Source: Acidimicrobiales bacterium (GTDB lineage: Bacteria; Actinomycetota; Acidimicrobiia; Acidimicrobiales; Palsa-688). From it: a stretch of DNA of 64,000 nt. The position numbers were made by a program, and so were the translations under genes. Of this stretch, positions 38,132-63,263 are shown piece after piece. Under the pieces are notes generated by a model. The model was not told the DNA's origin and searched no databases. It saw only the letters and a list, made by a program, of their open reading frames with translations. The stretch spans positions 102,528-166,527 of the forward strand of contig CBDIBC010000002.1 of NCBI GenBank assembly GCA_965276635.1, in the 5' to 3' direction. The first letter of the stretch is position 1, and each line of letters starts with the position of its first letter.

Positions 38132-38752
38132 TCAGCCCTGCAGCACGGCCGGGTCCCGTAGCACCGCCTGGTCGTGGGGCACTGGGTCGGTCATCTCGGC
38201 GACTCGCCGGTCGAACGCCGCGCAGAGTAGGTGGACGGCGACCTGGTGTACCTCTTGGACGGTGGGCGTGCCGGCGGCGACGATCGCGACGGTGTCGTCG
38301 CTGGCGGCGGCCAGCGGATTGGGGGCCGGCCCGGTGAAAGACCACACCACCATCCCAGCTGCCCGAGCGGCGTCCGCTGCGGCGACGACGTTCGGCGAAC
38401 GGCCGGAGGTGGAGAACGCGATCAGCACGTCGTCGGGACGTCCGTGGGCGCGCACCTGGCGGGCGAACATCTCCTGCGGGCCGTAGTCGTTGGTTAGGGC
38501 GGTGAGCGCGGAGCCGTCGACGTGGAGTGCGAGAGCGCTGAACGGGGGCCGCTCCTCGAGGTACCGGCCGACCATTTCTGACGCCAGGTGCTCGGCGTGG
38601 GCCGCGCTGCCGCCGTTGCCGACCGTGAGCAGCCGGCCGCCGTCGACCAGGCGGTCGGCCAGGCGCTTGCCCCAGGCCTGTACCTGTGTCAGCGCTGTCC
38701 GCTCGAAGTGATCGAGGGCGTCGCGCAGGGCGTCGAGGTGGGTGCCGGTCAT
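38132..38752 (-). CDS. gmhA: D-sedoheptulose-7-phosphate isomerase
   Basis: SIS domain; LTVGNGGSAAHAEHLASE..IAFSTSGRSPNVV. Confidence 0.85.
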   Translation of the reverse strand: MTGTHLDALRDALDHFERTALTQVQAWGKRLADRLVDGGRLLTVGNGGSAAHAEHLASEMVGRYLEERPPFSALALHVDGSALTALTNDYGPQEMFARQVRAHGRPDDVLIAFSTSGRSPNVVAAADAARAAGMVVWSFTGPAPNPLAAASDDTVAIVAAGTPTVQEVHQVAVHLLCAAFDRRVAEMTDPVPHDQAVLRDPAVLQG

Positions 38753-44405: not shown

Positions 44406-46009
44406 ATCCCCGCGAGGACCACGTCGACCGCCTGCAGGAGGTCGACGGCGACCACCGGTGCCGCCGCCACCTCGGCGGGGCGCGTCACCCGGGTCGGCAC
44501 CAGCACGCCTCGCGCGCCGGCGGCGCGTGCCGCGGCGAGGTCCGAGCCGATGTCTCCGATCACCGCGCTCGACGCCGCCGCCACCCGCACCACGGCCGCG
44601 GCCGCCTGCACCAGCCCGGGGGCCGGCTTCCGGCACGCGCAGCCGTCGGCAGGGGCGTGCGGGCAGACCTGCCAGGTGTCGAAGGGGCCGAGCAGCTCGT
44701 CCACCCGCCGGTTGATCGCCAACACCTCGTCGAGGGTGGTGTGGCCCCGACCGACCGCCGCCTGGTTGGTGACCACTCCGGTCCGCATCCCGGCGGCCCG
44801 GGCCCGCGCAACCGCCCGGCGGGCACCGGGCATCAGGGCGACCCGGTCGGGGTCACGGTTGCCGGGCACGTCGACGATCAGGGTCCCGTCGCGGTCGAAC
44901 AGGATCAGCTCAGGTCGCCACGAGGTGTCAACCCGTCGGGAGCGGGGGCGGAGCCGGTAGGGCCGGAGGGCGGCCGAGGGCCGCAGCGCCAGCGGCGAGC
45001 GGCCCAGGCCGAGGGGCGAGCCCTCCTCAGCCCGGAGCGCACCCGGGACCGCGGCCCACCCGCGTGCGGCGTGGAACACGGCGGCGGGAGGGATGAGCGC
45101 CGAGGTGACGAGCATGGTCGCCACCTCGGAGCGGGTGCGGGGGCCTGGGGCGATGCGCTCCGCTGCGAACGCTGCCGTCGTCGCGGCCCAAGTCGCGCCG
45201 AGCGCCCCGGCGAGCGCCCGGCGGCCGGTCAGCGCAGCGGCAACGGCTCCTGCGGCGGCGGCGGTCGACACGGAATAGCGGCCGTTGCGCGCCGGTCCGG
45301 CGCCCACTGCGTCGCGCCAGCCGGTGCCGTGGAGGGCCCGCATCATGGCGTCGTCGGCGTTGCCGGCCTGGGTCCGGACGCTCACCCAGCGGCCCGACGG
45401 CCGGACAGGGTGCTCGACAGTGCGGGCACCCTTGACGATGACGTACCCGGCGTTGGCGACCCTAAGGCCGAGGTCGGCGTCCTCGCGGTAGGCGCGCGGG
45501 AAGCGCTCGTCGAATCCGCCCACCTCGGCGAGCACCTCCCGCCGGTAGGCCATGTCGGCGGTGATCCACCGGGCTGCCTCCAGGCCGGCGACGCTGCGCT
45601 CCCAGTCGGTCGGCCGCCGGTCGGCCGCCAGCGGCACGCGCACCACGCCCTGCGAGGCGGCGACCTCGACCGGGAGGCCAGTCAGGTCGTCGAGGAGCTG
45701 GAGCGCCCAGCCGGGTTCCGGCGCGACGTCGTCGTCGAGGAACACCACCCACGGGCTGACCGTCGAGCGCCAACCGGCGTTGCGGGCAGCGGCCGGGCCG
45801 CGCCCACCGGAGCGGAGCACTCGCACGTCGGGGCTGACGTCGAGGGGGCTGGCGGACGCCGGGGGCCGGTCGTCGACCACCACTACGGCATCGGGCCGGG
45901 GGCCTTCGCTGTCGGCTAGCGCGGTGAGGAGGGTGCGCAGCGATGGCCGAGCGACGGTCGGCACGACCACGCTGTACCCGATCGGGTCCGGGCCGGTGAT
46001 GCCGCTCAC
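44399..46009 (-). CDS. gmhB: fusion protein: GT2 glycosyltransferase domain + D,D-heptose 1,7-bisphosphate phosphatase (HAD) domain
   Basis: N-terminal YSVVVPTVARPSLRTLL..VVVVDD..FLDDD; C-terminal ELILFDRDGTLIVDVPGNRDPDRVALMPGARRAV..GVVTNQAAVGRGHTT..CACRKPAPG..GDIGSDLAAARAAGARGVLV; GTGA overlap with the upstream stop. Confidence 0.75.
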   Translation of the reverse strand: MSGITGPDPIGYSVVVPTVARPSLRTLLTALADSEGPRPDAVVVVDDRPPASASPLDVSPDVRVLRSGGRGPAAARNAGWRSTVSPWVVFLDDDVAPEPGWALQLLDDLTGLPVEVAASQGVVRVPLAADRRPTDWERSVAGLEAARWITADMAYRREVLAEVGGFDERFPRAYREDADLGLRVANAGYVIVKGARTVEHPVRPSGRWVSVRTQAGNADDAMMRALHGTGWRDAVGAGPARNGRYSVSTAAAAGAVAAALTGRRALAGALGATWAATTAAFAAERIAPGPRTRSEVATMLVTSALIPPAAVFHAARGWAAVPGALRAEEGSPLGLGRSPLALRPSAALRPYRLRPRSRRVDTSWRPELILFDRDGTLIVDVPGNRDPDRVALMPGARRAVARARAAGMRTGVVTNQAAVGRGHTTLDEVLAINRRVDELLGPFDTWQVCPHAPADGCACRKPAPGLVQAAAAVVRVAAASSAVIGDIGSDLAAARAAGARGVLVPTRVTRPAEVAAAPVVAVDLLQAVDVVLAGMC

Positions 46010-47688
46010 GCCGGCACCGCGCGTCGCTGCCGGAGCACCCCCGGTCCCCGCCGGGGTCGGCGGACGACGAACGGCCCGAGGACCAGCAGGTCGACGGGGG
46101 CCGAGCCGAAGCATTCCATTGCGTCCCGGGGGTCGTCGACCATCGGCCTCCCGGCGGTGTTGAGGCTGGTGTTGACCAGCACCGGGACGCCGGTCCGCTG
46201 CTCGAAGGCCACGAGCAATTCGTGAACGAGGGGTTCGGTCGCCCGGTCTACGGACTGCACTCGCGCCGAGCCGTCGACGTGGATCGCCGCACCGAGGCGC
46301 GCCTCCCACGCGGGGCGCACTCGGTGGGTGAAGAGCATGTACGGGCTGGGAAACGGGCCGTCGAAGATCTCGCTCGCCCGCTCAAGGGTCACCATCGGCG
46401 CCACCGGCCGGAACTGCTCGCGACCCTTGACCGTGTTGAGCCGGATCAGCGTCTCGGCCCGGCGGGGGTCGGCCAGGAGACTGCGGTGCCCGAGCGCCCG
46501 GGGGCCGTACTCGCTGCGGCCCTGGAACCACGCCACGATCCCGTCGGCGGCGAGCACCTCGGTGGTCGTCGCCGTCAGGTCGTCCGGTCGCTCGTAGGGG
46601 AGGTCGGCTTCGAGCAGCCACCCCTCCAGCTCGTCGTCGGACCAGCTCCGCCCGAGGGCGGCGGTGCGCAACGGCTCAACCGGGTCGCCGAGGTGGTGAG
46701 CCTGGTAGAGAGCACCGCCGAGGGCCGTGCCGGCGTCGCCTGAGGCTGGCTGGACCCACACCTGCTCAAAGGGCCCGTGGCGCAGCAGGTGGGAGTTGGC
46801 GACGCAGTTGAGCGCCACGCCGCCGGCCATCGTCAGGCACCGGTCTCTCGTACGGCCGTGGAGCCAGCCGGCGAGGTCGAGGAGGACCTCCTGCAGGCGG
46901 TGCTGGACGCTGCTCGCCAGGTCGGCGTGGCGGTGGTCCCAGGCGCCCTCACCGTCGCGGGCCGGTGCCAGCTGGGCCCAGGGGATCGTCCCCACGCGGA
47001 AGCCGCCCTCGCCGTCGGCGAAGATCAGCTCCCGGAGGACCGGCAGGTGCCGCGGCTCGCCGTAGGAGGCCATGGCCATCACCTTGTACTCGTCGGAGGA
47101 GCGCTTGAAGCCGAGGTGCACGGTCAGCTCCTCGTACATGAGGCCGAGCGAGTGCGGCAGCTCCTGGGTCCGGTACACCTCGAGGTCGCCGGCAACGGAC
47201 CGGCCAGCGAGGTGGGTCGTAGTCTCACCCCGCCCGTCGAGGACCAGCACGCTCGAGTCTCGAAACGGTGCGGCGAGGTAAGCGGAGGCGGCGTGGGCGA
47301 CGTGGTGGCGCACGTAACGGAGCCGGCCGCCGTCGATGCCCGGAATCGCCGACTCCAGGAACGAAGGGGCCCTATGGGCGTAGAACGTCCGCATCGGCTC
47401 CCACTCGTCCGCAGCCAGGTCGGCGCCCGAGGTACCAGGCGCCCCCAGCAGCGACGGGTCGTAGGAGTAGGTGACAGCATCGACATCACCAGGTGAAACC
47501 CCGGCCTTACGGAGGCACCACCGGGCAGCATTCACGGGCAACTCCCATGTCGAGAACGGCACCGCCTCCTTGCCGTGCTTGATTCGCGTGAAGCGCTCCT
47601 CCTCGGCCGCAGCCACGATCCGACCGTCGATGACCAGCGCTGCGGCCGGGTCGTGGAACACTGCGTTGATACCGAAAACGACCGCCAA
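46006..47688 (-). CDS. carbamoyltransferase (NodU/CmcH/TobZ family)
   Basis: MAVVFGINAVFHDPAAALVIDGRIVAAAEEERFTRIKHGKEAVP..RYVRHHVAHAASAY..GGVALNCVANS. Confidence 0.85.
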   Translation of the reverse strand: MAVVFGINAVFHDPAAALVIDGRIVAAAEEERFTRIKHGKEAVPFSTWELPVNAARWCLRKAGVSPGDVDAVTYSYDPSLLGAPGTSGADLAADEWEPMRTFYAHRAPSFLESAIPGIDGGRLRYVRHHVAHAASAYLAAPFRDSSVLVLDGRGETTTHLAGRSVAGDLEVYRTQELPHSLGLMYEELTVHLGFKRSSDEYKVMAMASYGEPRHLPVLRELIFADGEGGFRVGTIPWAQLAPARDGEGAWDHRHADLASSVQHRLQEVLLDLAGWLHGRTRDRCLTMAGGVALNCVANSHLLRHGPFEQVWVQPASGDAGTALGGALYQAHHLGDPVEPLRTAALGRSWSDDELEGWLLEADLPYERPDDLTATTTEVLAADGIVAWFQGRSEYGPRALGHRSLLADPRRAETLIRLNTVKGREQFRPVAPMVTLERASEIFDGPFPSPYMLFTHRVRPAWEARLGAAIHVDGSARVQSVDRATEPLVHELLVAFEQRTGVPVLVNTSLNTAGRPMVDDPRDAMECFGSAPVDLLVLGPFVVRRPRRGPGVLRQRRAVPA

Positions 47689-47747
47689 TTTTTGGCCTCC
47701 TGCCTCGCGATGACCCAGCGACAGTGATACCCGGCGCCAACCAAGTG

Positions 47748-47779
47748 AATCCTCTGCAGATAATCACCTGCAGAGGATT
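47748..47779. promoter_or_regulatory. perfect 12-bp inverted repeat (candidate operator) in the divergent promoter
   Basis: AATCCTCTGCAG-ATAATCAC-CTGCAGAGGATT between the carbamoyltransferase (minus) and GT2 (plus) starts. Confidence 0.5.
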
Positions 47780-47789
47780 TACTAGGCCA

Positions 47790-48659
47790 ATGGGCACATC
47801 GCAGCGGGACCGACCGCTAACCCTCGTCGTGGCGACCATGAACCGCCGGTCCGAGGTGCTGGCGACGCTGGGCCGGGCCCTCGACCGCCCCTTCCCGCCG
47901 CCGGTGGTCGTCATCGACAACGCCTCGGCCGACGGGACGGCGGCCGCCGTCCGAGCGACCTTCCCCGATGTGGCGCTGCTGGCGCTGCCGGCCAACCTCG
48001 GTGCCGCCGCCCGCACCGTCGGCGCCCGCTTGGCGACCACCCCGCTGGTCGCCTTCGCCGACGACGACTCGTGGTGGGAGGCGGGGGCCCTCGAGCGGGC
48101 CACCGCCTGCTTCACCGAGGACCCGGCGCTCGGGCTGCTCACCGGACGGGTCCTCGTCGGCACGGAGGCGACGCTTGATCCCACGTCTGCGGCGATGGCA
48201 GCTGGCCCGCTTGACGAGTGGCTGCGCCCGTCGGCCTCCGGCCGTCGAGGCGTGACCGGCTTCCTGGCCTGCGCCGCGGTCGTGCGACGCGAGCCGTTCC
48301 TCGCCTCCGGCGGGTTCGAGCCCCACCTGGTGATCGGCGGAGAGGAGGAGCTCGTCGCCCTGCGGCTCGCCACGGCCGGATGGAAGCTCGTCTACGACCC
48401 CGAGGTGGTCGTCCGTCACCACCCCTCACCCTCCCGTGACGCCCACCGCCGCCGACGACTCCTGGCCCGCAACGCCGTGCTGACGGCCTGGCTGGCCTAC
48501 CCGCCGCCGCAAGCGCTGCGGCGGAGCGTCGCAGCTTTGACCGGCCCCGAAGGTGTCGTCGGCGCGGCGAGCGCCCTGCGCTCGGCAGGGTGGGCGGCCG
48601 GCCGGCGCCACCCGGTCCCCCAAGCAGTCGGGGCGGCGTTCGAGGCCCTCGCCGGCTGA
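47790..48659 (+). CDS. glycosyltransferase family 2
   Basis: LTLVVATMNRRSEVLATLGRAL..VVVIDNASADGT..AFADDD. Confidence 0.8.
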   Translation: MGTSQRDRPLTLVVATMNRRSEVLATLGRALDRPFPPPVVVIDNASADGTAAAVRATFPDVALLALPANLGAAARTVGARLATTPLVAFADDDSWWEAGALERATACFTEDPALGLLTGRVLVGTEATLDPTSAAMAAGPLDEWLRPSASGRRGVTGFLACAAVVRREPFLASGGFEPHLVIGGEEELVALRLATAGWKLVYDPEVVVRHHPSPSRDAHRRRRLLARNAVLTAWLAYPPPQALRRSVAALTGPEGVVGAASALRSAGWAAGRRHPVPQAVGAAFEALAG

Positions 48660-48670
48660 GCGCCGGCGGT

Positions 48671-49585
48671 TCACGAGACGTACTGGCGGGCCTTCGAACG
48701 GTCGTGGTCGGCGTCGAGGAGGCGCAGGCCGACCTCCACGTCGGCACCGACGTTCCGGCGAGCAGCGACCACCCACCACCCTCCCCTGAGTGCCTCGACC
48801 ACCGCCCGAAGGCTGTGGCCGTCGGCCGGCGCGCTGCGCAGCAGCGCCGCACTCCGGAGCGCTGCCGAGGACACCGGTCGGCGAAGCCACGTGAACCAGA
48901 GGGTGTTGCGGATCCCTTGCCGGCGACGTAGGTGCGGGTCGCGCAGCACCGATGCCTGGTGGTGGATCTCGAGTTCCGGCACGTAGGCCATCTCCCAGCC
49001 GGCGTCGGCCAGGTCGGTTCCGGTGAGCTCCTCCTCGCCTCCGATGAGGAGCCGCCCCGAGAAGCCGCCCACGGCCCGGAACGCCTCCGCTCGTACCGTC
49101 GATGCCCCGGCCAGGAAGCTGAGCAGCGGTGCGCCGGGGCCGCCCGCCGGGCGGGGGAGGGGGCTGCGGTCCATCTCCTCGGACATGGCGTCGGTGGTCC
49201 CGCCCGGCTCGACGACGATGCGAGCGGTGACCACCGCCAGGTTTGGTCGCGCCTGTAGCAGGCCTACGGCCCGGCGGAGCGACCCTGGCGACCACCACGT
49301 GTCGTCGTCGCAGAACGCCACGAACCGGGTGCCTGCCAGCATGACCCCCACGTTGCGGCCGGCGCCGCCCATGTTGCAGCCGAGCGGCACCACGGTCACC
49401 CCGGGGAAGTCCCGCCGCACCGTCGCCACCGTGGCGTCGGCGGAGCCGTTGTCGACGACCACGATGCCGGGGTCCTCCTCGAGGGTCTCGAGGAGGTGGA
49501 GGGTGCGAGTCAGCTCGTCGCACCGGTCCCGTGTGATGATGACGACGGTGAGGTCTTCGCGTAGCGACGTCGGGCTCGCGGCCAT
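48671..49585 (-). CDS. glycosyltransferase family 2 (paralog of 47790-48659)
   Basis: LTVVIITRDRCDELTRTLHLL..VVVDNGSADAT..AFCDDD. Confidence 0.8.
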   Translation of the reverse strand: MAASPTSLREDLTVVIITRDRCDELTRTLHLLETLEEDPGIVVVDNGSADATVATVRRDFPGVTVVPLGCNMGGAGRNVGVMLAGTRFVAFCDDDTWWSPGSLRRAVGLLQARPNLAVVTARIVVEPGGTTDAMSEEMDRSPLPRPAGGPGAPLLSFLAGASTVRAEAFRAVGGFSGRLLIGGEEELTGTDLADAGWEMAYVPELEIHHQASVLRDPHLRRRQGIRNTLWFTWLRRPVSSAALRSAALLRSAPADGHSLRAVVEALRGGWWVVAARRNVGADVEVGLRLLDADHDRSKARQYVS

Positions 49586-49586
49586 G

Positions 49587-50558
49587 TCAGCCGACCGGTC
49601 GCAGCAGCTCGACCAGACGGTCCCGGTCGGTGAGGAGGGCGGCCCGGCCGTCCTCGGTGCAGGCCGCCACCCGGTCCCGTCCCTCGGCGGAACGGCACCA
49701 GCCGACCGCCTCGTCGAACGCGTCGTGACTGACGGCTTCGGCGCTGATCACCGCCGGCCACCCGAGTGCCCTGGCCTGTGCGCCGACCTTGCCCCCGCCT
49801 GCGACGGGGTCGACGGCCACCACCGGCACCCCCGCGGCCAGCCCGAGGACCAGTCCGTGCAAGCGGGTCGTCACCACCACGTCGACGCGCGCTACTGCGG
49901 CCGCGAACTGCTCCGGGGTGGACAGCTGGCGGGCGTCGCCCGGGTGCAGGCGGGTGTCGAGTTCGACGACGGCGAGGTCGGTGCCGGTCAGCCACCCGTC
50001 GAGGCAGCGGTGGACGCCGTCGTGGCGCTGCCGGTTCCCGTACTCGGGCTGGGAGTGGCTCCGGATGACCGCCGCCACCGCCACGTCGGCCACCGGGCGG
50101 TGGGCCGTCCCGAGGGCCAGGTCGACCGCGGCCCGGCCCGGCTCGTCGCGTGCCAGGACCGTGACGGGGGCGAGGGCCGGCGTGCGGTCCACGACCGATA
50201 CCCCGACGGCCACCCGCTGCGAGCCGGTGAACCGGGCGAAGAGCTCCTCCACCAGCTCGCCGCCGGCGGGCCCGCAGACGAACACCAGGTGACCGACCGT
50301 CGCCGGCGGGACGTCGTGCCACGCCAGCTGGCCGCGGCGTCGGAAGGTGGCGGCCATGGCCACGTCGTGGTCGATGCCGGCGTCGTCGAGCCACCGGCTG
50401 ACGGTGCGTTGTGCGAGGAGGTCGCCAGCGGTGACCTCGGCGGTGTCGAAGCTGAACCACCCGGTCACGAGGACACCCCTGGCGCCGACGGGTGCGTACG
50501 GGTTAGGACATGCCAGGGCACTCCTGGCGGTCGACGTCGGGGTGGACTGGCTGAGCAT
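49587..50558 (-). CDS. polysaccharide pyruvyl transferase family protein
   Basis: VVTTRLHGLVLGLAAGVPVVAV; start uncertain (ATG 50558 or downstream). Confidence 0.6.
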   Translation of the reverse strand: MLSQSTPTSTARSALACPNPYAPVGARGVLVTGWFSFDTAEVTAGDLLAQRTVSRWLDDAGIDHDVAMAATFRRRGQLAWHDVPPATVGHLVFVCGPAGGELVEELFARFTGSQRVAVGVSVVDRTPALAPVTVLARDEPGRAAVDLALGTAHRPVADVAVAAVIRSHSQPEYGNRQRHDGVHRCLDGWLTGTDLAVVELDTRLHPGDARQLSTPEQFAAAVARVDVVVTTRLHGLVLGLAAGVPVVAVDPVAGGGKVGAQARALGWPAVISAEAVSHDAFDEAVGWCRSAEGRDRVAACTEDGRAALLTDRDRLVELLRPVG

Positions 50559-51811
50559 CGCTCTCCGATCTGTGGCGGGCGTTCGCTGACTTGGACCTAC
50601 CCGGATCTGCCGGTCACATCGACGACGACTCGAGTGGTGACGCAGCTTGTCGAGGAGACTGTGCAGGCGGCGCGACACCTGCATCTGGCTTACCCCGAAC
50701 TCCTCGCCGACGCGATGCCGAGCGCATCGGGGCCGCCACCCTCGCCGAAGGATCAAGACCGACCCCCATCACCGTCAAGCACTGGCCCTTGGTGCACCCT
50801 CGCGCAAGGCTGGCATTCCCTCCGACTAGGACCGCTCGCCAACTACTCGCCGCCATCCTACCGATCAGGCTGCTGCCCGCGCCGGCTGCGGCCGCCGGAA
50901 GCCCCTTCGAGCAGCTCGACCCCCGCCATGACCTTGGGGTCACGACGCGCTCAGGCAACCCGGTAGCGGTCAGCGAAGACCGACCCGTCGAAATCAAGCC
51001 TGCCGACTGGGGCGCCCTGGCGCCGCTCCGCGGCCTGAACAGTGAGAGCCGCCCACCCTTCGCTTCGACCGAGGTGCTCACCGATCTCACGGAAAGACAT
51101 ACCCCGTTGGGGTGCCGGGCTGTCATGCCGGCCGGCCGAGGCCGCGTCGGCTGACGCCGGAGTCGAAGGGCCTCGTGCTCGATGGCCAGTACGTCCGGCC
51201 GTTTGCTCTCGATGCCGAGGTAGCCCTTGAGAACCGCGACGTGCTTGGTCAGGTAGTCCGACGGCATAGCCGTAGCGCAGTCGGGCGCGAGGCTGAACAG
51301 GAACGAGTCCGTGCAGAGCTCGCGGCCACTCTCGGATGCCCGTTCATCAAGGCGATCGCAGTGGCGGCGCAGCATTGCCATCGTCTCGCCATCGACGTGA
51401 AAGGTGCGGCCACGTCGCGTCTTGGTCGTCTTAACCCTTCCGGACTCGCCGATGGCGCTGTCTACTGAGATCTGGCCCTTGGACCACCCGATGCCGGATC
51501 GACGGACGCCGACGAGCTCGCCGCGACGCATGCCGGTGACGGCCCCGAGGAGAAGGATGGCAGCGAACATCGGGAACGACGTCCGCTGCGGTCGACAACA
51601 ACAAGTGGAGCTCGTCGACTTCGGGCGGCGTCCGCTCCTTCGAGGAGTGAGTATTTGTGGGCAGCTCGAAGTCGGCCATCGGGTTGCGACTGGACATCCC
51701 GCGTCGCTTTGCCTACCGGAAGAACGGGGCGTGGAGACTTTTGGCTTGCCTAAGCCGGGAGTTGCTCTGAGCATCCCCCCGTTGGACGGACACTTCGTAT
51801 AGGAGGAGTCC

Positions 51812-52128
51812 ATGTCCATGAAGAGGAAGTCGAGGGGCGGTCGCCCGTCGAGGTTCAGTGCGGAGTTCCGCAGAGATGCGGTCTCGTTGGTCCTCGATGA
51901 GCACCGCCAGATCGCCGATGTGGCCCGGTCGGTCGGCGCGAATGAGGGCACCTTGGGGAACTGGGTCCGCCTGGAGCGCATCGAACGCGGTGAGCGCCAG
52001 GGCATGACCGTCGACGATCGGGCGGAGCTGGCCGAGCTGCGAGCCGAGAACTCTCAGCTGCGCATGGAGCGTGATCTCTCAAACGATCGATGGCCTTCTG
52101 GGTGAAGGAGTCGACGTCGTGAGCCGCT
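51812..52128 (+). CDS. IS3-family transposase OrfA (HTH), with one indel near 52078
   Basis: MSMKRKSRGGRPSRFSAEFRRDAVSLVL..LRAENSQLRMERDL then shifted LKRSMAFWVKESTS. Confidence 0.65.
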
Positions 52129-53002
52129 TCCGCTGCGTCGATGACCAGAAGGCTGCCGGGTTCCCGGTCCCCACTGCGTGTGAGGCGACGGGGGTGTCCA
52201 AAGTCGGGCTATTACGACTGGGGCGCCCGGGAGGCGGCCGGGCCGACCGAGCGTCAGATCGCCGATGACCCCCTGATCGAGTTGATGCGAGAGGTCCACG
52301 CCGCCTCTGACGGCAACTACGGGGTGCCGCGCATGTACAAGGAGCTGCGCCGGGCCGGGATGGTCATCAACGACAAGAAGGTCCGCCGGCTGATGCACCG
52401 GGCCGGGCTGATCGGACGTCACCATCGCCGCCGGTGCCGCACCACCTTCCCCGGGCCCGGCTATGAGACGGTCCCTGACCTCGCCGGGCGGCGCTTCGAC
52501 CCCGGCGCCCCCGACGTGGCCTGGTGTCAGGACATCACCTACATCGCCACGGGGGAAGGCTGGCTGTTCGTGGCGTCGACCCTCGATCTGGGGTCGCGTC
52601 GATTGTTGGGCTACTCGATGGCCGACCACATGAGAACCGAGCTGGTCACCGACGCCCTGTCCATGGCCCTCACCGCCCCGGGGCGGTGCCGCCGCCGGGG
52701 TGATCGCCCACGCGGATCGGGGCACCCAGTATCTCTCCAACGACTACCTCGAGTTCTGCCACACCCATCAGCTGCGACCATCGGTCGGAAGAACCGGAAT
52801 CTGTTGGGACAACGCCGTGGCTGAGAGCTTCTGGCAGTCCCTGAAACGGGAATGCATCCAAGGACAGGTCTTCGCCACCCGCGCCGAAGCCCGCCGAGCG
52901 ATCTTCCGGTGGGTCAACTGGTACAACGCCAGCCGGCTTCACACCAGCCTCGACGGGGTCCCCCCGATCGAGTGGGAACAGCAATACCGTCAAGCTTCAT
53001 AA
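52102..53002 (+). pseudogene. IS3-family transposase OrfB (DDE integrase core), two further indels
   Basis: SGYYDWGAR..YGVPRMYKELRRAG..; DDE region HADRGTQYLS..ICWDNAVAESFWQSLKRE; indels at an aaa run (about 52190) and a gggg run (about 52690). Confidence 0.65.
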
Positions 53003-53299
53003 CCACCCGTCCGGCCAACGGGGAGAGTCTCACTCAGCCCGGCTTGACGCATGGCGCCGAACAGCTGATCCATGACGGCTGTGTCCACGCGCTTCACCGG
53101 GTAGGACCCGACGGTGGGGGAGAACCAACGGTGGTGGAGCTTGCGGTAGTCACCGACAGTCTTCTCCGCTCGCCCCTTCTCCTCGCCGAGGTACTCGACG
53201 AGAAACCGCTCCACCGCCTCGTCGACCTGTGGGGGGCCGCCTGGTGCTTCCACACCGAAGCCGACCCCGCCGCTGACGCCTGGGTGCGAGACAAAGCGA

Positions 53300-53694
53300 T
53301 CGTTGTCCTCGAAGGAAAAGCACGCGACGTCGCCGCCGGCATCCGCCGGCGAGCGACCGCCCTCGGCCTGCCCGCCACCAAACGGACCAAGGCCGACGCT
53401 GCCGCCACCTACCTGACCAACAAGGCCCCCTACTTCGACTACCCCACCGCCCTAGCCGCCGGCTGGCCCATCGCCACCGGCGTCATCGAAGGAGCCTGCC
53501 GCCACCTCGTCGCCGACCGCATGGACATCACCGGCGCCCGCTGGAGCGCCACCGGAGCCGAAGCCGTCCTCAAACTACGAGCCGTCAACACCAACGGCGA
53601 CTACGACGACTACATCCGCTACCACCTCGAGCAAGAACACCGCCGGAACCACCACACCCGCTACCAACACGTCCGACTACCCACAGCCGCCTGA
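53300..53694 (+). pseudogene. C-terminal fragment of an ISKra4-like transposase
   Basis: AAGWPIATGVIEGACRHLVADRMDITGARWSATGAEAVLKLRAVNTNGDYDDYIRYH. Confidence 0.45.
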
Positions 53695-54008
53695 ACCGGT
53701 CCCTCCAAAGAGAGCCGCACCCAAATGCTGTTCAGTACTTTCGGCACTTAGGGCGCGACATCGGCGCCACCGGCCGGCTCTCTGACCTGCGACGATGCCA
53801 GATCCGGGGACTTCTCGCGCTTTCCATGCTTCGAGTTGTCCCTTCACCCGGCGGGCAGTGCGTTCATCTCCACGACGTGCCCGATCGGGCACAGAAGCAA
53901 AGCGGTGTCCGGTCTTCGCTATATCGCACCCACGACGGGGGGATGTCGCCGCTGCGACACCCGGGTGTCGGCCCACCGACAGTGACTAGCGGGGGATCAG
54001 ACCGGCAA

Positions 54009-54290
54009 ATGGTCGCACCACTGACGCCGGAGGGGACCGTGCCTGTCACAGCAGCGAGCGATCAGGAGACGGCCGACGTCGACACTGCGACGTGGACCAT
54101 CCCCGCCCTCAGGGCCCGCTCGGCCCACCTCCGCCACCTCGAGCGGGCCAGCCAGGACTCCTACGAGATCGGCAAACGGGACCGGGCCATCCGGGAGGCC
54201 TACGACGGCGGGGCCAAGGTCCCCGAGCTCGCCCGGTTCCTCAAGCTGAAGCGGGGCCGCCATCTACGGGATCGTCGGCACTGCCCCCTG
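54009..54290 (+). CDS. hypothetical small protein with possible HTH
   Basis: TWTIPALRARSAHLRHLERASQDSYEIGKRDRAIREAYDGGAKVPELARFLKL; start uncertain. Confidence 0.25.
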
Positions 54291-54490
54291 ACGTCGCCAC
54301 AACCCGCCGGCGTGGGTCGTGGGTACGGCTACAGGGGCCTCGTCCGCGGCCCTATGTGGGGTATCCAGTGCGGCTCAGGCGGGGGCCCGGAGCCTCGCTG
54401 CGTCGACCGCACTCATCGCGCCGGAGCCTGGTTCAGGTCGACGACTCTTTGACCCGAAAATCCAAAGCGGGTCCCCTTCAAGATTCTGTC

Positions 54491-54523
54491 TACCGTAGTA
54501 GACAGTTACCGTCTACTACGGTA
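54491..54523. promoter_or_regulatory. 13-bp perfect inverted repeat, candidate hicAB operator
   Basis: TACCGTAGTAGAC-agttacc-GTCTACTACGGTA, 10 nt upstream of the hicA GTG; nested TTACCGT/ACGGTAA. Confidence 0.5.
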
Positions 54524-54533
54524 AAGTGCGGGT

Positions 54534-54731
54534 GTGACCTCCCGGGATCTCCGCCGCCGGCTCCGTCGGCTCGGCTGCGAAGAACTCCGCCAGAGCGGCT
54601 CGCACCTGGTGGTCCAATGCGGCACGTGCCGGACCGTCGTCCCAATCCACGGGGGCGACATCCCGACCGGGACGCTGCGGAGCATCGAACGAGATCTGGA
54701 GCCCTGCCTCGGAAAGGGACGGCTGCGATGA
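54534..54731 (+). CDS. hicA: HicA-family mRNA interferase toxin
   Basis: LRQSGSHLVV..TVVPIHGGDIPTGTLRSIERDL. Confidence 0.75.
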   Translation: MTSRDLRRRLRRLGCEELRQSGSHLVVQCGTCRTVVPIHGGDIPTGTLRSIERDLEPCLGKGRLR

Positions 54732-55174
54732 CCACGACCACGACCGGCACCTACACCGCCGTCTACCAGCGCGACGCCCACGGCATGTGGCTCGTGGAAC
54801 TCCTCGAGGAGCCCCGCGTCCACACCTACGGCCGCACCCTGGCCAAGGCCCGCGAGAACATCCGAGACGCCACGGCGCTGTGGTTCGAGACCGAACCCGA
54901 CTCGCTGACCCTCGTCGACGACGTCCGCCTGCCCCCCAAGGCCCGCACCAGCGCCGCCAGGGCCCACCAGGCCCGCCTGCGAGCGACCGCAGCGCAGGAG
55001 GCGGCCGCGACGGCAACCAAGGCCGCCGCTGTCGCCCTGGTGCGAGACGGCCAGCTGTCAGTCCGAGACGCCGCCGAGATCCTCGGGCTGTCGCACCAGC
55101 GGGTGCAGCAGCTGATGGAACCCGCCGCCGCCGACCAGGCCGCCGAGAAGGTCACCAAGAGCCCCACGACGTAG
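54730..55174 (+). CDS. hicB: HicB-family antitoxin
   Basis: YTAVYQRDAHGMWLVELLEEPRVHTYGRTLAKARENIRDATALWFE plus C-terminal DNA-binding LSVRDAAEILGLSHQRVQQL; ATGA overlap with hicA. Confidence 0.75.
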
Positions 55175-55251
55175 ATCCACCACCAGGTGGCCCCGGCGGT
55201 GTTGGAGCACCACCGGGGCCCGAGCCACCCCTACACAGGAGGGATGTCCCA

Positions 55252-55866
55252 ATGTCCGACCGTAGCCCTCGGCTGCTCCCCCCAGCCGACCTCGCCCACC
55301 CGTCGCTGAGCCCCCGAACGGCGAGGCTGTACTCGAGTGCCGGGAACCATCTCGAGCGCCTGCTCGCCCAGGCCGGAACGGGTCTGACGACGTGCAACGA
55401 GGAGCAGCTGGCCGCCGTGGCCGCTGAGTGGATGGCTTCCTCCGCGTCGGCCCGCAACCAGATCCTCTGCGCGCTCCCCCACATCTGGCGGGCTCTTGGC
55501 CGCACCGATCCGCCGGACAAGGTAGCGGCCATCGGGCGGCGCATCTCCCCGCCGAAACTGACCACCTACGCACCGCTCGTTCCCGGGGAGGCGGAAGCGC
55601 TCGAGGCGGCGGCAGTAGCGGTCGGCGGCCAAGTCGGCCTCATGGTCCTCGTCGCCCTCCACGGCAGTTTCTGGTCCTCGGAGATGTGCCGGCTGCGCTG
55701 GGAGGACCTCGACGAGACGCAGCGGGTCTGGTGGGTGCGGTCCGACGACGGGCGCTGTCAGGTCAAGATCGCCGAGCGGCTGTGCCAGCTGCTACCCGCG
55801 GCGAGGCCCGCTACCGGCTGGGTGTTCGTCGGGCGCTGGACGCTTTCGGCAGTCGGGCCTCGCTAA
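55252..55866 (+). CDS. tyrosine-recombinase-like protein, truncated (204 aa, lacks the catalytic C-terminal half)
   Basis: SAM-like N-domain, then RWEDLDETQRVWWVRSDDGRCQVKI; RBS AGGAGGG. Confidence 0.4.
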   Translation: MSDRSPRLLPPADLAHPSLSPRTARLYSSAGNHLERLLAQAGTGLTTCNEEQLAAVAAEWMASSASARNQILCALPHIWRALGRTDPPDKVAAIGRRISPPKLTTYAPLVPGEAEALEAAAVAVGGQVGLMVLVALHGSFWSSEMCRLRWEDLDETQRVWWVRSDDGRCQVKIAERLCQLLPAARPATGWVFVGRWTLSAVGPR

Positions 55867-57594: not shown

Positions 57595-58239
57595 CTATGC
57601 TCCAGTCGCTACTGCCGTGCTGCGTTGGACGTGCTCATCGCCGGTGGTGCTCGAGATCGGTGGTCCTTCGGGTCCCGCCAGGGTAAGGCGTTCCGTTCGG
57701 AAATCAATCCGCACGGCCCGGAATCGGCTGAGGATGTCGGAACCGAGCGTTCCCATGAGTCCCGGGGCGTGTCGCGACTGTAGAGCGCCTACGCCGAGGA
57801 TCTCATTTCGAAGCGGCAGGCCGTCGACTGAGAGGTCTCCGGGTGCCGTGAGGGAAATGGTGTGGGCGCAGCCGAAGCTGGTGGCATGGCGGGTGTCGAA
57901 GGTGTCGAGGTGCAGCCGTGCGGCCAGGCCAGAGTCGATGATGCTTGCGGCGGAGCCGGTGTCAACGTCGAAGGTGAATGGGCCCCGGCCGTCGACGCAG
58001 ACGCCGGCAACCACGACCGCAAACCCCGGCACGGGTCGGACAACTCGAACGGGAACCACGATGTCGGTGGCTGACCCCGACAGGTGCGTCTCGCAGTTCC
58101 GAAACGCCGGAAAAGCGATCGGACTGCCCGCCCCAGTCGACGGTGGGCGGCTGGAGCAGCTGACCAACGATATGCCGAGGAGCACCGCACCTAGCAACGC
58201 GAGGCAGGCAGCTTGGCCCCGGCCTGCCTGCCTCGTCAT
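57595..58239 (-). CDS. retropepsin-like (clan AA) aspartyl protease lipoprotein
   Basis: Lipoprotein signal LLGAVLLGISLVSC; FTFDVDTGSAASIIDSGLAARLHL (DTGS active site). Confidence 0.5.
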   Translation of the reverse strand: MTRQAGRGQAACLALLGAVLLGISLVSCSSRPPSTGAGSPIAFPAFRNCETHLSGSATDIVVPVRVVRPVPGFAVVVAGVCVDGRGPFTFDVDTGSAASIIDSGLAARLHLDTFDTRHATSFGCAHTISLTAPGDLSVDGLPLRNEILGVGALQSRHAPGLMGTLGSDILSRFRAVRIDFRTERLTLAGPEGPPISSTTGDEHVQRSTAVATGA

Positions 58240-59910: not shown

Positions 59911-62900
59911 TTACGGATTGTTCCCGAAGGCGTGGGCGTCGCCTTGGGCTCCTATGAGGCGGTAACCGCTGTCGCTGTTGGCGACGATCCCGACGACAGG
60001 AGTGGTGCCGGGGGCTCCGAGCGACCCGTAGAACTTGGCGTCACCCAAGGTGAACACGCCACCATCGGCAGCGACCAGCCAGTACCCGTAACCATCAGGG
60101 GTGGCAGCCATGCCGACGATGGGCTGGTTGAGATGCCTGTCGCCCTCAGACCCGTAGAACTTGGCGTCACCGAAGGTGAACACGCCACCATCGGCGGCGA
60201 CCAGCCAGTACCCGTAACCATCAGGGGTGGCAGCCATGCCGACGATGGGCTGGTTGAGATGCCTGTCGCCCTCAGACCCGTAGAACTTGGCGTCACCGAA
60301 GGTGAACACCCCACCATCGGCGGCGACCAGCCAGTACCCGTAACCATCAGGGGTGGCAGCCATGCCGACGATGGGCTGGTTGAGATGCCTGTCGCCCTCA
60401 GACCCGTAGAACTTGGCGTCACCGAAGGAGAACACCCCACCATCGGCGGCGACCAGCCAGTACCCGTGACCGTCAGCGGTGGCGGAGACACCGATGATCG
60501 GGGCGTTGAGGCGGGCGCCGTTCTCCGAGCCCAGGTCGGCGGCGTTGCCGTGCGTGGAGAGCGTCCCGTTCCCGTCCAGCGCCCAGTACCCGGCCCCGCC
60601 CGGGGTGGCGGCGACCGCACCACCGGTCGGTTCCCGGACCGCCGCCGGTCCGCTCGGCGGCGTGGTCACCGGCGGCGTGGTCACCGTGACCGTGACCGAA
60701 GGCGTGGTCGCTGTCCCGGCGCTGTTGGTGGCGGTGACGGTGAAGGTCCCCGACGCGGTCGGGGTCCCGGAGAGCACCCCGGTAGTGGGGTCGAGGGCCA
60801 GTCCGGCTGGCAGGGCGCCCGAACCGACGGCAAACGTCGGTGTCGGGATACCCGACGCCACGAACGTGTAAGAGTAGGGCGAACCGGCAGCAGCCGAAGA
60901 TGGGCTGTCAGCGCTGAACACCGGGGTAGCGGAAGAGACCGGGGGTGCCGGCGGGCCGGCGGGGGCGACGGTGGTCGAGGCCGGCGAGGGGCTCGAGATG
61001 CCGACCGTGTTGGCGGCGGTCACGGTGAAGGTGTAGCTGTCACCGTTGGTGAGGCCGTTCACGGTGATCGGGCTGGACGTGGCGGTGGCGGTCTGGCCGC
61101 CATGCGCCGGGGTCGTGGTGTCGGTCGCGGTCACCGTGTAAGAGGTGATGGCCGAACCGCCGTCTGACGCCGGGGCGCTGAACGCCACGCTGGCCTGCGC
61201 GTTCCCGGGGGTGGCGCTGACGCCGGTCGGGGCGCCAGGAGCGGTGGCGGCGGGGGCGACGGTGGTCGAGGCCGGCGAGGGGCTCGAGATGCCGACCGTG
61301 TTGGCGGCGGTCACGGTGAAGGTGTAGCTGTCACCGTTGGTGAGGCCGTTCACGGTGATCGGGCTGGACGTGGCGGTGGCGGTCTGGCCGCCATGCGCCG
61401 GGGTCGTGGTGTCGGTCGCGGTCACCGTGTAAGAGGTGATGGCCGAACCGCCGTCTGACGCCGGGGCGCTGAACGCCACGCTGGCCTGCGCGTTCCCGGG
61501 GGTAGCGCTGACGCCGGTCGGGGCGCCAGGTCGCTGCTCGACGGTGTAGGAGTCGGTGGCGACGGCGGTGCTGGCGTCATCCGATGAGGCCGTGGCCGTG
61601 TCGGTAGCCGGCCCCGAAGCGGCGGCCGTGGACACCAGGACCGGCACGGCGATCGCTGGAAGGACTGTGCCTGCGGTCAGTGGGCTCGCCGAAGAGGCAG
61701 GATAGGCGCAGGTGACGGTCTGGTTGCTTGGGGCTCCGCACGTCCAACCCGTCCCGCTGGGCTGCCCGGGAAGAAGGCCAGCTGGGAAGGTGTCGGTGAC
61801 CGACACCGGATCGGTCTCGTCGCCGGCGGTGGGGCTGACGGTCGGCTGGATGGTGAAAGCGGAAGATGTGCCACCGGTCAACACCCCGCTGGTGCTGTCG
61901 GTGTTGGTGGCGGTCAATACCGGCAGTGGGCCGGTCAGGGTGCTGGCCGAGAAGTTGGCAACCTCGTGGGTCTCATAGGCGTTGGCCGTCGACGCTGTCC
62001 AACCGAACGTCAACTGCCACGGGGCCCCGGTCGCCGGGTTGATCCAGGACGAGGGGAAGGAGGCGTTGGCAGTGAGGCTCTGGAGGCTACCGGTGAGCGT
62101 CTGGGGCGCCGTCGCTCCGACAGGGGTGTAGGAGACGACGAAGCGCTGGGCACCCACGGTCAGCCCTGACGCAGTAGTCGCAGAGCTCGCCGTCGGGTTC
62201 ATGGCCAGTTCGACTGGCACCCCAGTCGATCGGGTGGTGGACCCAGGCGTGTCGAGGGTGTCGCCTCCCAGGTTGTTGGTGCCGCTGGGCGTGGTTCCGG
62301 CGGACGAAGCCAACACGCAGTAGCCGGCGGTGCCATTCCCGGCCCCTCGCGCGGTCACCGCCTGCGGGGAGGTGGGGTCGGAAGTGTCGTTGGTGCAGCC
62401 GCTGCCCTGGGACGCACTGTTGAGGTAGTTGCCGTACACGTCGAAGCCGACGCCCAGATATCCGTGAGGGAGTCCTGACTCACCGTTGGCGGCGTTGGCC
62501 GCGTAGCCGAGCGACCCGCCGAGGGGACCGGTGGAAGTCGGGGGGACAGGGTGAGCAGGGTCGGTGGCGGCCAGGTCGAACGATAGACCGTCACCCGCCG
62601 GCCCACCGGTACCCGAAGGAGCTCCGAACTGGTACAGATCGAACTTGACATCCAAGCCCTGACTGGTCGGAAGCCCCGCGGTGTTGAACACCGACCCAAC
62701 CCTGTCGTGAGCCGACGAGTTCAACTGCAAGGCGCCGCCGGGGGCGGCATCGGTCGCCGGCGAACAACGAGGTATCGACGTCGCACCAGACCCGGCAGCG
62801 GTCAGGCAGGCCTGGTTCGTCCCGAAAAACGCCGCCGGCAGGACCCACTGCCCCACCGGCGTGGACGCGCCGGTGAATGTCTCGCTGCCTAGGGGCGTCA

Positions 62901-63045
62901 AGGTCGTCGCGGTCGCGGCCATCGCGGGAAGCGTCGTGGCCGACAGCAAACCTACAGTGGCCGCCGCCCCCACACCGGCGAGGAATCGCCAGCGCAGATT
63001 GTCCCGACCAGCGGCAAGTACAAGTAGTAGGCGCATGCGCTCCAT
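59911..63045 (-). CDS. large secreted multidomain protein: signal peptide, L-type lectin-like domain, 2 x FN3, Ig-like domain, 4-5 x 42-aa WLVAADGGVF-type repeats
   Basis: MERMRLLLVLAAG..TLPAMAA signal; lectin signature GDGLSFDLAA...HGYLGVGFDVYGNY; exact 97-aa FN3 duplication; PYSYTFVASGIPTPTFAV..LPAGLALDPTTGVLSGTP; GYWLVAADGGVFTFGDAKFYGSEGDRHLNQPIVGMAATPDGY x4. Confidence 0.8.
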   Translation of the reverse strand: MERMRLLLVLAAGRDNLRWRFLAGVGAAATVGLLSATTLPAMAATATTLTPLGSETFTGASTPVGQWVLPAAFFGTNQACLTAAGSGATSIPRCSPATDAAPGGALQLNSSAHDRVGSVFNTAGLPTSQGLDVKFDLYQFGAPSGTGGPAGDGLSFDLAATDPAHPVPPTSTGPLGGSLGYAANAANGESGLPHGYLGVGFDVYGNYLNSASQGSGCTNDTSDPTSPQAVTARGAGNGTAGYCVLASSAGTTPSGTNNLGGDTLDTPGSTTRSTGVPVELAMNPTASSATTASGLTVGAQRFVVSYTPVGATAPQTLTGSLQSLTANASFPSSWINPATGAPWQLTFGWTASTANAYETHEVANFSASTLTGPLPVLTATNTDSTSGVLTGGTSSAFTIQPTVSPTAGDETDPVSVTDTFPAGLLPGQPSGTGWTCGAPSNQTVTCAYPASSASPLTAGTVLPAIAVPVLVSTAAASGPATDTATASSDDASTAVATDSYTVEQRPGAPTGVSATPGNAQASVAFSAPASDGGSAITSYTVTATDTTTPAHGGQTATATSSPITVNGLTNGDSYTFTVTAANTVGISSPSPASTTVAPAATAPGAPTGVSATPGNAQASVAFSAPASDGGSAITSYTVTATDTTTPAHGGQTATATSSPITVNGLTNGDSYTFTVTAANTVGISSPSPASTTVAPAGPPAPPVSSATPVFSADSPSSAAAGSPYSYTFVASGIPTPTFAVGSGALPAGLALDPTTGVLSGTPTASGTFTVTATNSAGTATTPSVTVTVTTPPVTTPPSGPAAVREPTGGAVAATPGGAGYWALDGNGTLSTHGNAADLGSENGARLNAPIIGVSATADGHGYWLVAADGGVFSFGDAKFYGSEGDRHLNQPIVGMAATPDGYGYWLVAADGGVFTFGDAKFYGSEGDRHLNQPIVGMAATPDGYGYWLVAADGGVFTFGDAKFYGSEGDRHLNQPIVGMAATPDGYGYWLVAADGGVFTLGDAKFYGSLGAPGTTPVVGIVANSDSGYRLIGAQGDAHAFGNNP
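60031..60534. repeat. tandem 126-bp repeats (about 4 copies) inside the large protein gene
   Basis: Near-identical units begin at 60031, 60157, 60283 and 60409. Confidence 0.8.
60964..61545. repeat. 2 x 291-bp near-perfect tandem duplication (one mismatch) encoding duplicated FN3 domains
   Basis: 60964-61254 matches 61255-61545 with a single g/a difference. Confidence 0.85.
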
Positions 63046-63263
63046 CTCCGATCCTCGAACCGAGGCGCTCAGCACCTCCCACAGGGTTATCGGCAGCGAG
63101 AGTCGTCACCTGAACAGGCACCGCCGACGGTCGAGAGAGAAACGGTCACGCCGACCATGGCACTACGACATGACCGTCTACGAGACCACGGTGCGGCCGT
63201 TCAGTTCGGGTGTTTTCGTGCCGATAGAGGCGTCATGGTCGGTGGCTGCGGAATCGTCGGACT

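Follow-up and report, generated by a model that had tools for sequence, protein, structure and literature searches.

The stretch of DNA analyzed here (the window) comprises 64,000 nucleotides (nt) of contig CBDIBC010000002.1 from an Acidimicrobiales bacterium and has a G+C content of 69%. At 54487–55220 it contains two closely linked genes in the order hicA then hicB, encoding a HicA toxin and a putative HicB antitoxin/repressor, with an inverted repeat before the first gene and a hairpin after the second. The hicA stop codon and the hicB start codon overlap by 4 nt in the sequence ATGA (54728–54731). The features of this locus are as follows.

54488–54503, no strand: predicted operator O1, GTCTAC-CGTA-GTAGAC, a full match to GTCTA-N6-TAGAC
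54491–54523, no strand: inverted repeat with 13-bp perfect arms, or 16-nt arms with one mismatch
54499–54527, plus strand: predicted sigma-70-type promoter, −35 hexamer TAGACA (54499–54504), 17-nt spacer, −10 hexamer TAAAGT (54522–54527)
54511–54526, no strand: predicted operator O2, GTCTAC-TACG-GTAAAG, nearly a copy of O1 in inverted orientation, its right half degenerate
54534–54731, plus strand: hicA, toxin gene, 65 amino acids, GTG start, Pfam HicA_toxin (PF07927)
54728–55174, plus strand: hicB, antitoxin/repressor gene, 148 amino acids, ATG start
55189–55220, plus strand: G+C-rich hairpin after hicB, GGCCCCGGCGGTG / CACCACCGGGGCC, 6-nt loop, −32.6 kcal/mol, z −2.1; probably a terminator without a T-tract

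For comparison, 37 relatives of the window HicB were aligned and 80 loci (numbered with the prefix L) were fetched from species-representative genomes, mostly of Acidimicrobiia, with others from Gaiellales, other Actinomycetota, Myxococcota, Melainabacteria/Obscuribacterales, Acidobacteriota, and Dehalococcoidia. By tblastn, 70 of the 80 loci have a hicA sequence directly before hicB, and the hairpin that follows hicB is also kept in L085. The window HicA matches PF07927 over residues 3–55 with an E-value of 8.5e-13 (48.6 bits vs a curated Pfam cut-off of 27), and its relatives by sequence in the PDB are 1whz (5e-6) and 9svk, the latter named as HicA family. The protein contains a Gly22-Ser23-His24 motif, the glycine of which is conserved in 67/69 and the histidine in 66/71 of the fetched family loci. 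According to mutagenesis, the equivalents of this glycine and histidine are needed for toxicity or RNase activity in the HicAs of Burkholderia pseudomallei, Yersinia pestis, Escherichia coli, and Streptococcus pneumoniae (PMC11594946).

Because scans with the Pfam and NCBIfam models gave no HicB match, the identity of HicB was taken from a structural model, a profile search of the PDB, and the names of its relatives. The AlphaFold2 model (mean predicted local distance difference test score [pLDDT] of 88) has an N-terminal domain with the order beta-beta-beta-alpha-beta (strands 8–15, 21–25, and 32–35, helix 38–52, and strand 61–67; pLDDT >90), followed by a long helix of 38 residues (70–107) and two short helices (112–119 and 123–130), and residues 112–130 form a predicted C-terminal helix–turn–helix (HTH). 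The tail of the protein, in the region of codon 137, is modeled with low confidence and is absent from most family members. The best Foldseek matches of the model are E. coli HicB (6u0i and 6hpb) and the N-domain of B. pseudomallei HicB, and the latter superposes with a root-mean-square deviation (rmsd) of 1.0 Å over 44 columns. A profile of the 37 relatives finds TTHA1756 (2yzt) in the PDB with an E-value of 8.9e-5 and 6g1c, 6g1n, 6u0i, and 6hpb with E-values of 0.004–0.02. Relatives of the window protein carry the name HicB family antitoxin at NCBI and JGI, and more distant ones match PF15919 or PF21748. HTH matches at residues 96–130 are below threshold, as are those of most family members; the weak matches of this HTH are to HTH_23, MarR_2, sigma-70 region 4, and UPF0175. 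In the family alignment Q124, R125, and Q128, all within helix 123–130, are invariant, as is S122 just before it. The model lacks the C-terminal beta-strand of a ribbon–helix–helix (RHH)-type, class 4 HicB such as those of Y. pestis, B. pseudomallei, and S. pneumoniae, is all-helical from residue 70, and the sequence has no RHH match in Pfam. There is also no match of the window HicB to the Xre-type models HTH_3 or HTH_31, in scans that did not include a separate search of the C-terminal domain against structures; HTH_31 is matched by 1 of the 37 family members (E-value of 0.009). The initial annotation of this DNA had named the pair a hicAB toxin–antitoxin operon, an identification that the HicA domain match and the model, profile, and relatives of HicB support. 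We assign a probability of about 75% to the reading that 54487–55220 is a self-contained type II toxin–antitoxin cassette of the ordinary class 3 HicAB kind, taken together with the operators, promoter, and origin of the second copy proposed for it below.

The inverted repeat upstream of hicA is exactly as it had been annotated. Its arms, TACCGTAGTAGAC (54491–54503) and GTCTACTACGGTA (54511–54523), are exact reverse complements separated by 7 nt, and if one mismatch is admitted they grow to 16 nt (54491–54506 and 54508–54523). The nested repeat of TTACCGT (54506–54512) and ACGGTAA (54518–54524) is present, and 10 nt separate the end of the repeat from the GTG of hicA at 54534. No other perfect short-range inverted repeat in the window is as long, and 0.03 repeats with arms of at least 13 nt are expected per sequence (30 first-order Markov simulations). 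The next longest have 12-bp arms and spacers of 8–12 nt and lie at 47748–47779, 41628–41661, and 58200–58235. The comparison of loci, though, points to a different unit. The window contains a single exact GTCTA-N6-TAGAC, the dyad O1 at 54488, which with its flanks reads TGTCTA...TAGACA (54487–54504). The second dyad, O2, begins 23 bp after the start of O1 and is the reverse complement of O1 save for its last positions. The 13-bp palindrome consists of the right part of O1 (TAC-CGTA-GTAGAC) facing the left part of O2 (GTCTAC-TACG-GTA), and it arises from the near-identity of O2 to an inverted O1. We posit that the conserved, functional unit is probably the pair of dyads and not the palindrome.

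Conservation of the dyad was assessed in the 90 nt before hicA in 72 regions (71 fetched loci plus the window). GTCTA-N6-TAGAC is found upstream of hicA in 45 of these 72 regions (44/71 without the window), and 44 occurrences fall within 6.7 kb of upstream DNA compared with 49 in all 576 kb of the loci, which leaves 5 in the other 570 kb. N6 is the sole spacing of the dyad seen in the loci, and the wider consensus is yGTCTA-N6-TAGACr, often in the form GTCTAG-N4-CTAGAC. The orientation implied by the 13-bp palindrome, TAGAC-N7-GTCTA, occurs in 11 cases and is always the junction of tandem sites. The tandem O1-N7-O2 arrangement is also present in L001, L016, L021, L048, L066, and L083, and in L048 both dyads are intact. 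In the closest relatives, L001 (Acidiferrimicrobium sp. IK; upstream sequence GTCTAtcgcgaTAGACagcaatcGTCTActacggTACGG, with the O1 spacer tcgcga), L083 (GTCTAagtcgcTAGGC...GTCTActgcagTATGG, spacers agtcgc and ctgcag), and L085 (GCCTAtccgggTAGAC...GTCTActacagTGATC, spacers tccggg and ctacag), the GTCTA and TAGAC half-sites are in register and the spacers differ, so that the 13-bp palindrome is lost in all three. The invariant residues S122, Q124, R125, and Q128 of the predicted recognition helix have a counterpart in an invariant half-site, a co-conservation that we consider consistent with recognition of the dyad by HicB. The recombinase-like open reading frame (ORF) downstream of the cassette, the ORF upstream of it (53826–54452), and further flanking ORFs were not matched by tblastn in any of the 80 genome loci. 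Literature searches for a GTCTA motif with HicB, or for leaderless hicAB, returned nothing relevant.

Two further observations concern the upstream regions of relatives. In many relatives, single-operator loci such as L036, L040, L056, L058, and L071, the dyad ends 0–6 nt before the start codon and a TANNNT hexamer (e.g., TACGCT or TAGGCT) lies inside the dyad center, such that the −10 appears to be within the operator and not a half-site. In L081 (positions 600–740), whose HicB is 68% identical to that of the window, there are no GTCTA dyads upstream of hicA and several GGACGTGA-like repeats are present instead, maybe a replaced promoter or operator.

The dyads overlap both hexamers of the predicted promoter. 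TAGACA-17-TAAAGT is the single promoter-like site in the 1.6 kb between 54000 and 55600, where shuffled sequences give a mean of 0.0; its −35 is the right half of O1, its −10 is the right half of O2, and 6 nt separate the −10 hexamer from the G of the hicA GTG. From this spacing we infer that transcription starts at G 54534, the first base of the GTG, and, since the predicted start falls on the start codon, that the hicA mRNA is leaderless. The pattern TAGACA/TAGCCA, spacer, GTCTA-N6-TANNNT, 4 to 7 nt, and start codon recurs in L001, L016, L021, L048, and L066, and in L083, too, the tandem layout ends 4–7 nt ahead of the start codon. The dyads, which overlap the predicted −35 and −10 hexamers, are conserved across loci. 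Because the inverted-repeat region overlaps the sole promoter-like site, it is very probably the site of HicB autoregulation. The initial annotation had expected autoregulation by binding of HicB to the 13-bp palindrome; the place agrees with our reading, and the unit to be bound is, as argued above, that of the dyads.

Several points weigh against this interpretation of the genes and their control region. The window HicB reaches no HicB model in the Pfam or NCBIfam scans, the Foldseek E-values are weak (2.8e-3 at best), and the assignment of the modeled protein to HicB is based on the structure prediction, weak profile matches (E-values of 1e-4 to 1e-2), and relatives. The exact dyad is absent in 27 of the 72 loci. 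The right half of O2 agrees with TAGAC at 3 of 5 positions, and HicB may bind O2 weakly or not at all. The reverse-complementary centers of the two dyads, CGTA and TACG, are a coincidence of about 1 in 256 that the reading by dyads explains solely as inverted copying. Finally, the promoter and the leaderless start are predictions based on consensus, and L001, which shares the layout, fails the promoter scan.

The alternatives to a pair of dyads give the palindrome a role of its own. Taken literally, the initial annotation implies a single 33-bp operator centered on 54507 and bound symmetrically by one HicB oligomer. The perfection of the arms, the rank of the repeat in the window and its low expected number, its identity in the sibling assembly L087 (described below), and its overlap with both promoter hexamers are all compatible with such an operator, and the reverse-complementary spacers CCGTAG and CTACGG exceed what conservation of half-sites requires. 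We nevertheless judge it quite improbable: the 33-bp dyad is not kept in the three closest relatives, L001, L083, and L085, in which the half-sites remain in register, and the family-wide orientation is GTCTA-N6-TAGAC (44 cases), with TAGAC-N7-GTCTA confined to tandem dyads. Highly improbable, in our view, is a function of the repeat as an RNA or DNA hairpin, either a terminator or processing signal of the upstream ORF or a recombination site of a mobile element. The repeat does fold as RNA (−24.1 kcal/mol, z −3.5), homology with L084–L086 starts at 54483, just to its left, which places it at a module boundary, and a recombinase remnant and insertion sequence (IS) fragments are nearby. Against this, no compensatory changes preserve the stem in relatives, where the half-sites alone are kept, the distance between the motif and the hicA start is constant in loci that have no neighbor genes in common with the window, and the repeat lies upstream of the predicted transcription start. 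The terminator version in particular was rejected, as the terminator scan was empty at the palindrome and there is no T-tract. The reading that we retain is that of two neighboring operators.

Based on the predicted domains and sites, the cassette would work as follows. HicA would act as a small RNase toxin that HicB neutralizes through its N-terminal partial-RNase-H-like domain, and HicB would repress the operon through its C-terminal HTH. A HicB dimer would read GTCTA-N6-TAGAC, in which 11 bp, or about one turn of the helix, separate the half-site centers. Two of these dyads would stand in tandem, the canonical O1 and O2, an inverted copy of O1 whose right half has presumably drifted to TAAAG. 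The promoter would thus be built from the operators, and since both hexamers are operator half-sites, a HicB occupying O1 and O2 would cover and occlude the −35 and the −10. Translation of hicB may be coupled to that of hicA through the ATGA overlap together with the GGAAAGGGA sequence in the end of hicA, and the G+C-rich hairpin would close the unit. The cassette is positioned beside a tyrosine-recombinase gene, which in relatives corresponds to the end of an integrative island nearest tRNA-Lys, and this would fit a role in stabilizing such an island.

Parts of this design have precedents. In class 3 hicAB systems hicA is upstream of hicB and the C-terminus of HicB carries an HTH, the model being E. 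coli K-12 HicAB (6hpb) (Gerdes 2024, mBio, PMC10865869). The window system resembles it in gene order, close linkage, and a HicA toxin of the double-stranded RNA-binding domain type with a conserved histidine, as well as in the partial RNase H fold of the HicB N-domain, for which 6u0i and 6hpb are the top fold matches, and in the HTH at the C-terminus. E. coli HicAB is known to repress itself through an inverted repeat in its promoter (PMC10865869), and such autorepression is predicted from sequence here. Unlike that of E. coli K-12, the HTH of the window HicB is a long helix followed by two short helices and is not recognizably of the Xre type, and full-length superposition on 6hpb is poor (rmsd of ~18 Å). 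The E. coli operon also uses two promoters, P1 and P2, with hicO at P2, whereas the window has one predicted promoter inside two operators and a putative leaderless start. Known HicBs repress via palindromic operators that overlap the −10 hexamer (PMC10865869), and Y. pestis HicB3 uses two inverted repeats (PMC11594946). The closest analogue of the regulatory layout of the window is Y. pestis HicA3B3, in which the hicA promoter contains the inverted-repeat binding sites BS1 and BS2, the principal site overlaps the −10, and there is one upstream promoter (PMC11594946). In contrast to the predicted window protein, YpHicB3 has an RHH domain and forms tetramers, and its operator sequences are unrelated; the gap between hicA3 and hicB3 is 174 bp, where the window has the 4-nt overlap. 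B. pseudomallei HicAB (6g1c, 6g1n, and 6g26) shares the fold of the HicB N-domain, a HicA in which Gly22 and His24 have the same numbering and are needed for toxicity, and a palindromic operator overlapping the −10 hexamer (PMC11594946), but differs in its RHH DNA-binding domain, single palindrome, and CRP site. The Thermus thermophilus proteins TTHA1756 (2yzt) and 1whz are the best relatives at the sequence level in the PDB of the HicB N-domain and of HicA, respectively; TTHA1756 differs in being a 67-amino acid protein without a DNA-binding domain.

Eighteen kilobases upstream of the cassette there is a second copy of hicB (copy 2), and remnants of a recombinase gene follow both it and the intact locus (copy 1). 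The features relevant to these two loci are as follows.

36235–36681, plus strand: copy 2, hicB relic, from hicB codon 13 to 37 nt of 3' flank
36684–36734, plus strand: remnant of recombinase N-terminal coding sequence, 82% identical over 51 nt to L084 928–978 (E-value of 1.3e-4)
52141–52824, plus strand: IS3-type fragment (HTH_21 and rve), just upstream of the copy-1 locus
52852–53694, plus strand: ISKra4-family transposase, C-terminal third, just upstream of the copy-1 locus
55252–55866, plus strand: truncated tyrosine-recombinase-like ORF of 204 amino acids, with a weak match to Pfam Phage_integrase (E-value of 0.0074)

The copies align over 449 nt (54765–55211 vs 36235–36681; blastn) with 86.4% identity, or 87.9% in the coding core, somewhat less than the roughly 90% that had been noted for this second copy. 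As had also been annotated, copy 2 lacks hicA, of which no remnant was found there, and its N-terminus is replaced: codons 1–12 have given way to unrelated sequence beginning at an ATG at 36204, and the first beta-strand of HicB is lost. No recognizable operator or promoter lies upstream of it. The copy further has a deficit of 1 nt at 36288/36289 (the position of 54820 in copy 1), a change of codon 137 from CAG to TAG, and replacements of the family-invariant L119 by R and L129 by V. The shared 3' flank, previously put at about 30 nt, is 37 nt long and ends in the loop of the hairpin at 55189–55220; the unit common to the two loci is larger than that annotation proposed and has the composition hicB-hairpin-int. 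The recombinase remnant at 36684–36734 lies past a deletion of ~76 nt that took the 3' arm of the hairpin and the start of the recombinase, and at the protein level LAEAGLRARSAQLYARIARR of copy 2 aligns with LAHPSLSPRTARLYSSAGNH of the copy-1 recombinase ORF (shuffle p of 0.01).

Comparison with the sibling assembly L087 (a contig of ENA ERZ26858887) bears on both copies. L087 matches window positions 31261–37980 at 99.3% and 53879–55024 at 98.7%, and between these blocks it has 462 nt (6729–7190) that include (GCTTCGT)x8 where the window has 15.9 kb (37981–53878). By alignment, the DNA between the two hicB copies has been replaced at strain level; the copies are ~2.8 kb apart, start to start, in L087 and 18 kb apart in the window; the right end of the 15.9-kb stretch holds the IS3 and ISKra4 fragments. 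The operator region of L087 is identical to that of the window. Its copy 2 shares the truncation and the stop, and the frameshift is absent. An indel at 54865 would break hicB in L087 only, and conversely, in the window only, a gene for a Ser/Thr protein kinase (33072–35338, minus strand) is split into two ORFs by a 1-nt deficit at 34753; in L087 the kinase gene is a single open frame of ~575 codons, in which a 533-amino acid Pkinase gene was called. The deficit at 34753 is a hint that one or both assemblies contain homopolymer or indel errors, and the 1-nt deletion of copy 2 may likewise be an assembly error. Since this deletion is absent in L087, and since indels between the assemblies are mostly in homopolymers and run in both directions, we give it little weight as a sign of decay. 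Among the lesions of copy 2, the frameshift is doubtful, and the premature stop lies in a non-conserved tail.

Decay of copy 2 is evident from the loss of hicA, of the promoter, and of the first beta-strand, from the two replaced invariant residues, and from an even spread of substitutions on its own branch (6/4/7 by codon position, small counts). We weighed these losses against the prospect that copy 2 is alive as an expressed orphan HicB-like protein able to cross-repress or buffer the intact hicAB. Without the frameshift, which L087 lacks and which resembles the deficit that splits the kinase gene, 36204–36607 is one ORF; its stop falls in the tail that is missing from most of the family, the copies differ most often at third codon positions (10/7/25), and copy 2 still has both helix alpha1, which contacts HicA, and the recognition helix SHQRVQQ. 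The evenly spread own-branch substitutions, the changes at L119 and L129, the replaced first strand, and the lack of a recognizable promoter or operator upstream speak against continued function, and we regard an active orphan as unlikely.

How the window came to have two copies was examined with a neighbor-joining tree of the 347-nt hicB core (500 bootstraps; outgroups L083, L081, L002, and L003). In the initial annotation, copy 2 was put down to an old duplication or transposition of the module, here that of copy 1 in this genome, after which hicA was lost. Such an event would explain that both copies have the C-terminal tail and the 37 nt of 3' flank, which are absent in L001, that their orientation is the same, and that in L087 they are close to each other; furthermore, the four close sequences (copy 1, copy 2, L085, and L001) are nearly equidistant, at 85–89% identity to one another, and the tree is weakly resolved (~70% bootstrap). 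However, copy 1 groups with L085 in 355/500 bootstraps and copy 2 with L001 in 346/500, the two copies are sisters in only 11/500, and the identity of copy 1 is higher with L085 (88.8%) than with copy 2 (87.9%). L085 has the tail and flank as well, so that they are ancestral and not the mark of a local duplication, and their absence from L001 is due to a deletion next to a tRNA gene. Based on the tree and the near-equal identities, the split of the copies is at least as old as their split from homologues in other genomes. We thus do not favor duplication within this genome, which we hold to be a doubtful account; independent arrival of two related element ends accounts for the data at least as well as an ancient duplication. 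An assembly duplication as the source of copy 2, a further candidate, was rejected, given that the copies are only 86–88% identical and that L087 has both.

The flanking sequences suggest what these elements were. The ORF at 55252–55866 is tentatively a tyrosine recombinase; its NCBIfam XerA/invertase matches are weak, and the assignment is tentative because the ORF is cut short. Homology of L084–L086 to the window spans 54483–55264, so that the start codon and ribosome-binding region of this ORF are conserved together with hicAB. In L084 and L001, hicAB(-int) is directly beside tRNA-Lys(CTT) and tRNA-His genes (L084 1890–2117 and L001 4426–4630), followed by a sigma-70 gene; the tRNA-Lys sequences of the two are identical and the loci are syntenic. 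Between hicB and the tRNA, a degraded recombinase remains in L084, and in L001 ~1.1 kb (the hairpin and the int remnant) has been deleted. The integrase end of a tRNA-targeted island usually has the layout cassette-int beside a tRNA. The window has no tRNA gene in its 64 kb, its matches to tRNA-Lys fragments or attachment (att) site remnants are of 11–13 nt and at chance level, and no intact tyrosine integrase with an adjacent tRNA or att site is found in it; tRNA adjacency is seen in the relatives only. Judged from these remnants, both window loci look like the decayed ends of two related integrative elements, and copy 2 (36235–36734) would be what is left of an island end of this kind that came from a sister lineage.

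The toxin genes of several relatives appear damaged. In L001 (3772–3800), the nearest relative among the genomes, the hicA start codon is replaced by GGG and an in-frame TAG is present at codon 3, with no ATG, GTG, or TTG before the Gly-Ser-His motif, so this toxin gene looks dead; the hicB of this locus is intact and annotated. In L084, L085, and L086, the nearest metagenomic relatives, codon 24 of hicA is changed from CAC to CGC, placing Arg at the position of the catalytic His24, which the window keeps. These sequence changes suggest repeated inactivation of the toxin in the L001/L084–L086 clade.

Other genes of the window were noted in passing. The ORF upstream of hicA (53826–54452, plus strand) has no family match; near 54250–54292 one base fewer would give ...ELARFLKLKRGRIYGIVGTAP*, resembling the end of a small HTH protein, and L087 has five 1-nt insertions relative to the window within this ORF. 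Directly upstream of copy 2 (35378–36124, plus strand) a gene encodes a protein with an FHA domain and, at its C-terminus, a weak LuxR/GerE-type HTH; it adjoins the kinase gene, and the pair is kept in L087. An ORF of ~1054 amino acids at 59911–63075 (minus strand) contains fibronectin type III and He_PIG Ig-like domains, and multiple offset matches of L016 to 60052–60507 suggest internal repeats.

As a gene pair the window hicAB is ordinary: an HTH-bearing HicB with a palindromic operator belongs to a described class, and its relatives are already named HicB in public databases. What the comparison of 80 loci adds is a testable operator consensus for an uncharacterized subfamily that is widespread in Acidimicrobiia and also present in other Actinomycetota, Myxococcota, Melainabacteria, and Acidobacteriota. 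This consensus gives exact half-sites to mutate and lets HicB-controlled promoters be predicted in metagenomes, and the arrangement at the window locus suggests a compact promoter-within-operator design with a leaderless start. More generally, the locus illustrates that a striking perfect palindrome can be the by-product of two neighboring dyads. We are cautious in extending these observations to a HicA/HicB(HTH) subfamily that spans phyla and has an invariant operator of its own, in one clade of which the promoter hexamers are themselves half-sites (TAGACA as −35 and TAGNNT/TAAAGT as −10, with a leaderless hicAB mRNA) and whose HicBs, orphans included, cross-repress; as a whole this proposal is a speculative one that we consider more probably wrong than right by a good distance. 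Given the invariance of the recognition helix and of the half-site, each HicB of the subfamily could repress the promoter of any other copy. If this were true, orphans such as copy 2, in which helix alpha1 and the HTH are kept, would be cross-repressors or anti-addiction factors against related incoming islands.

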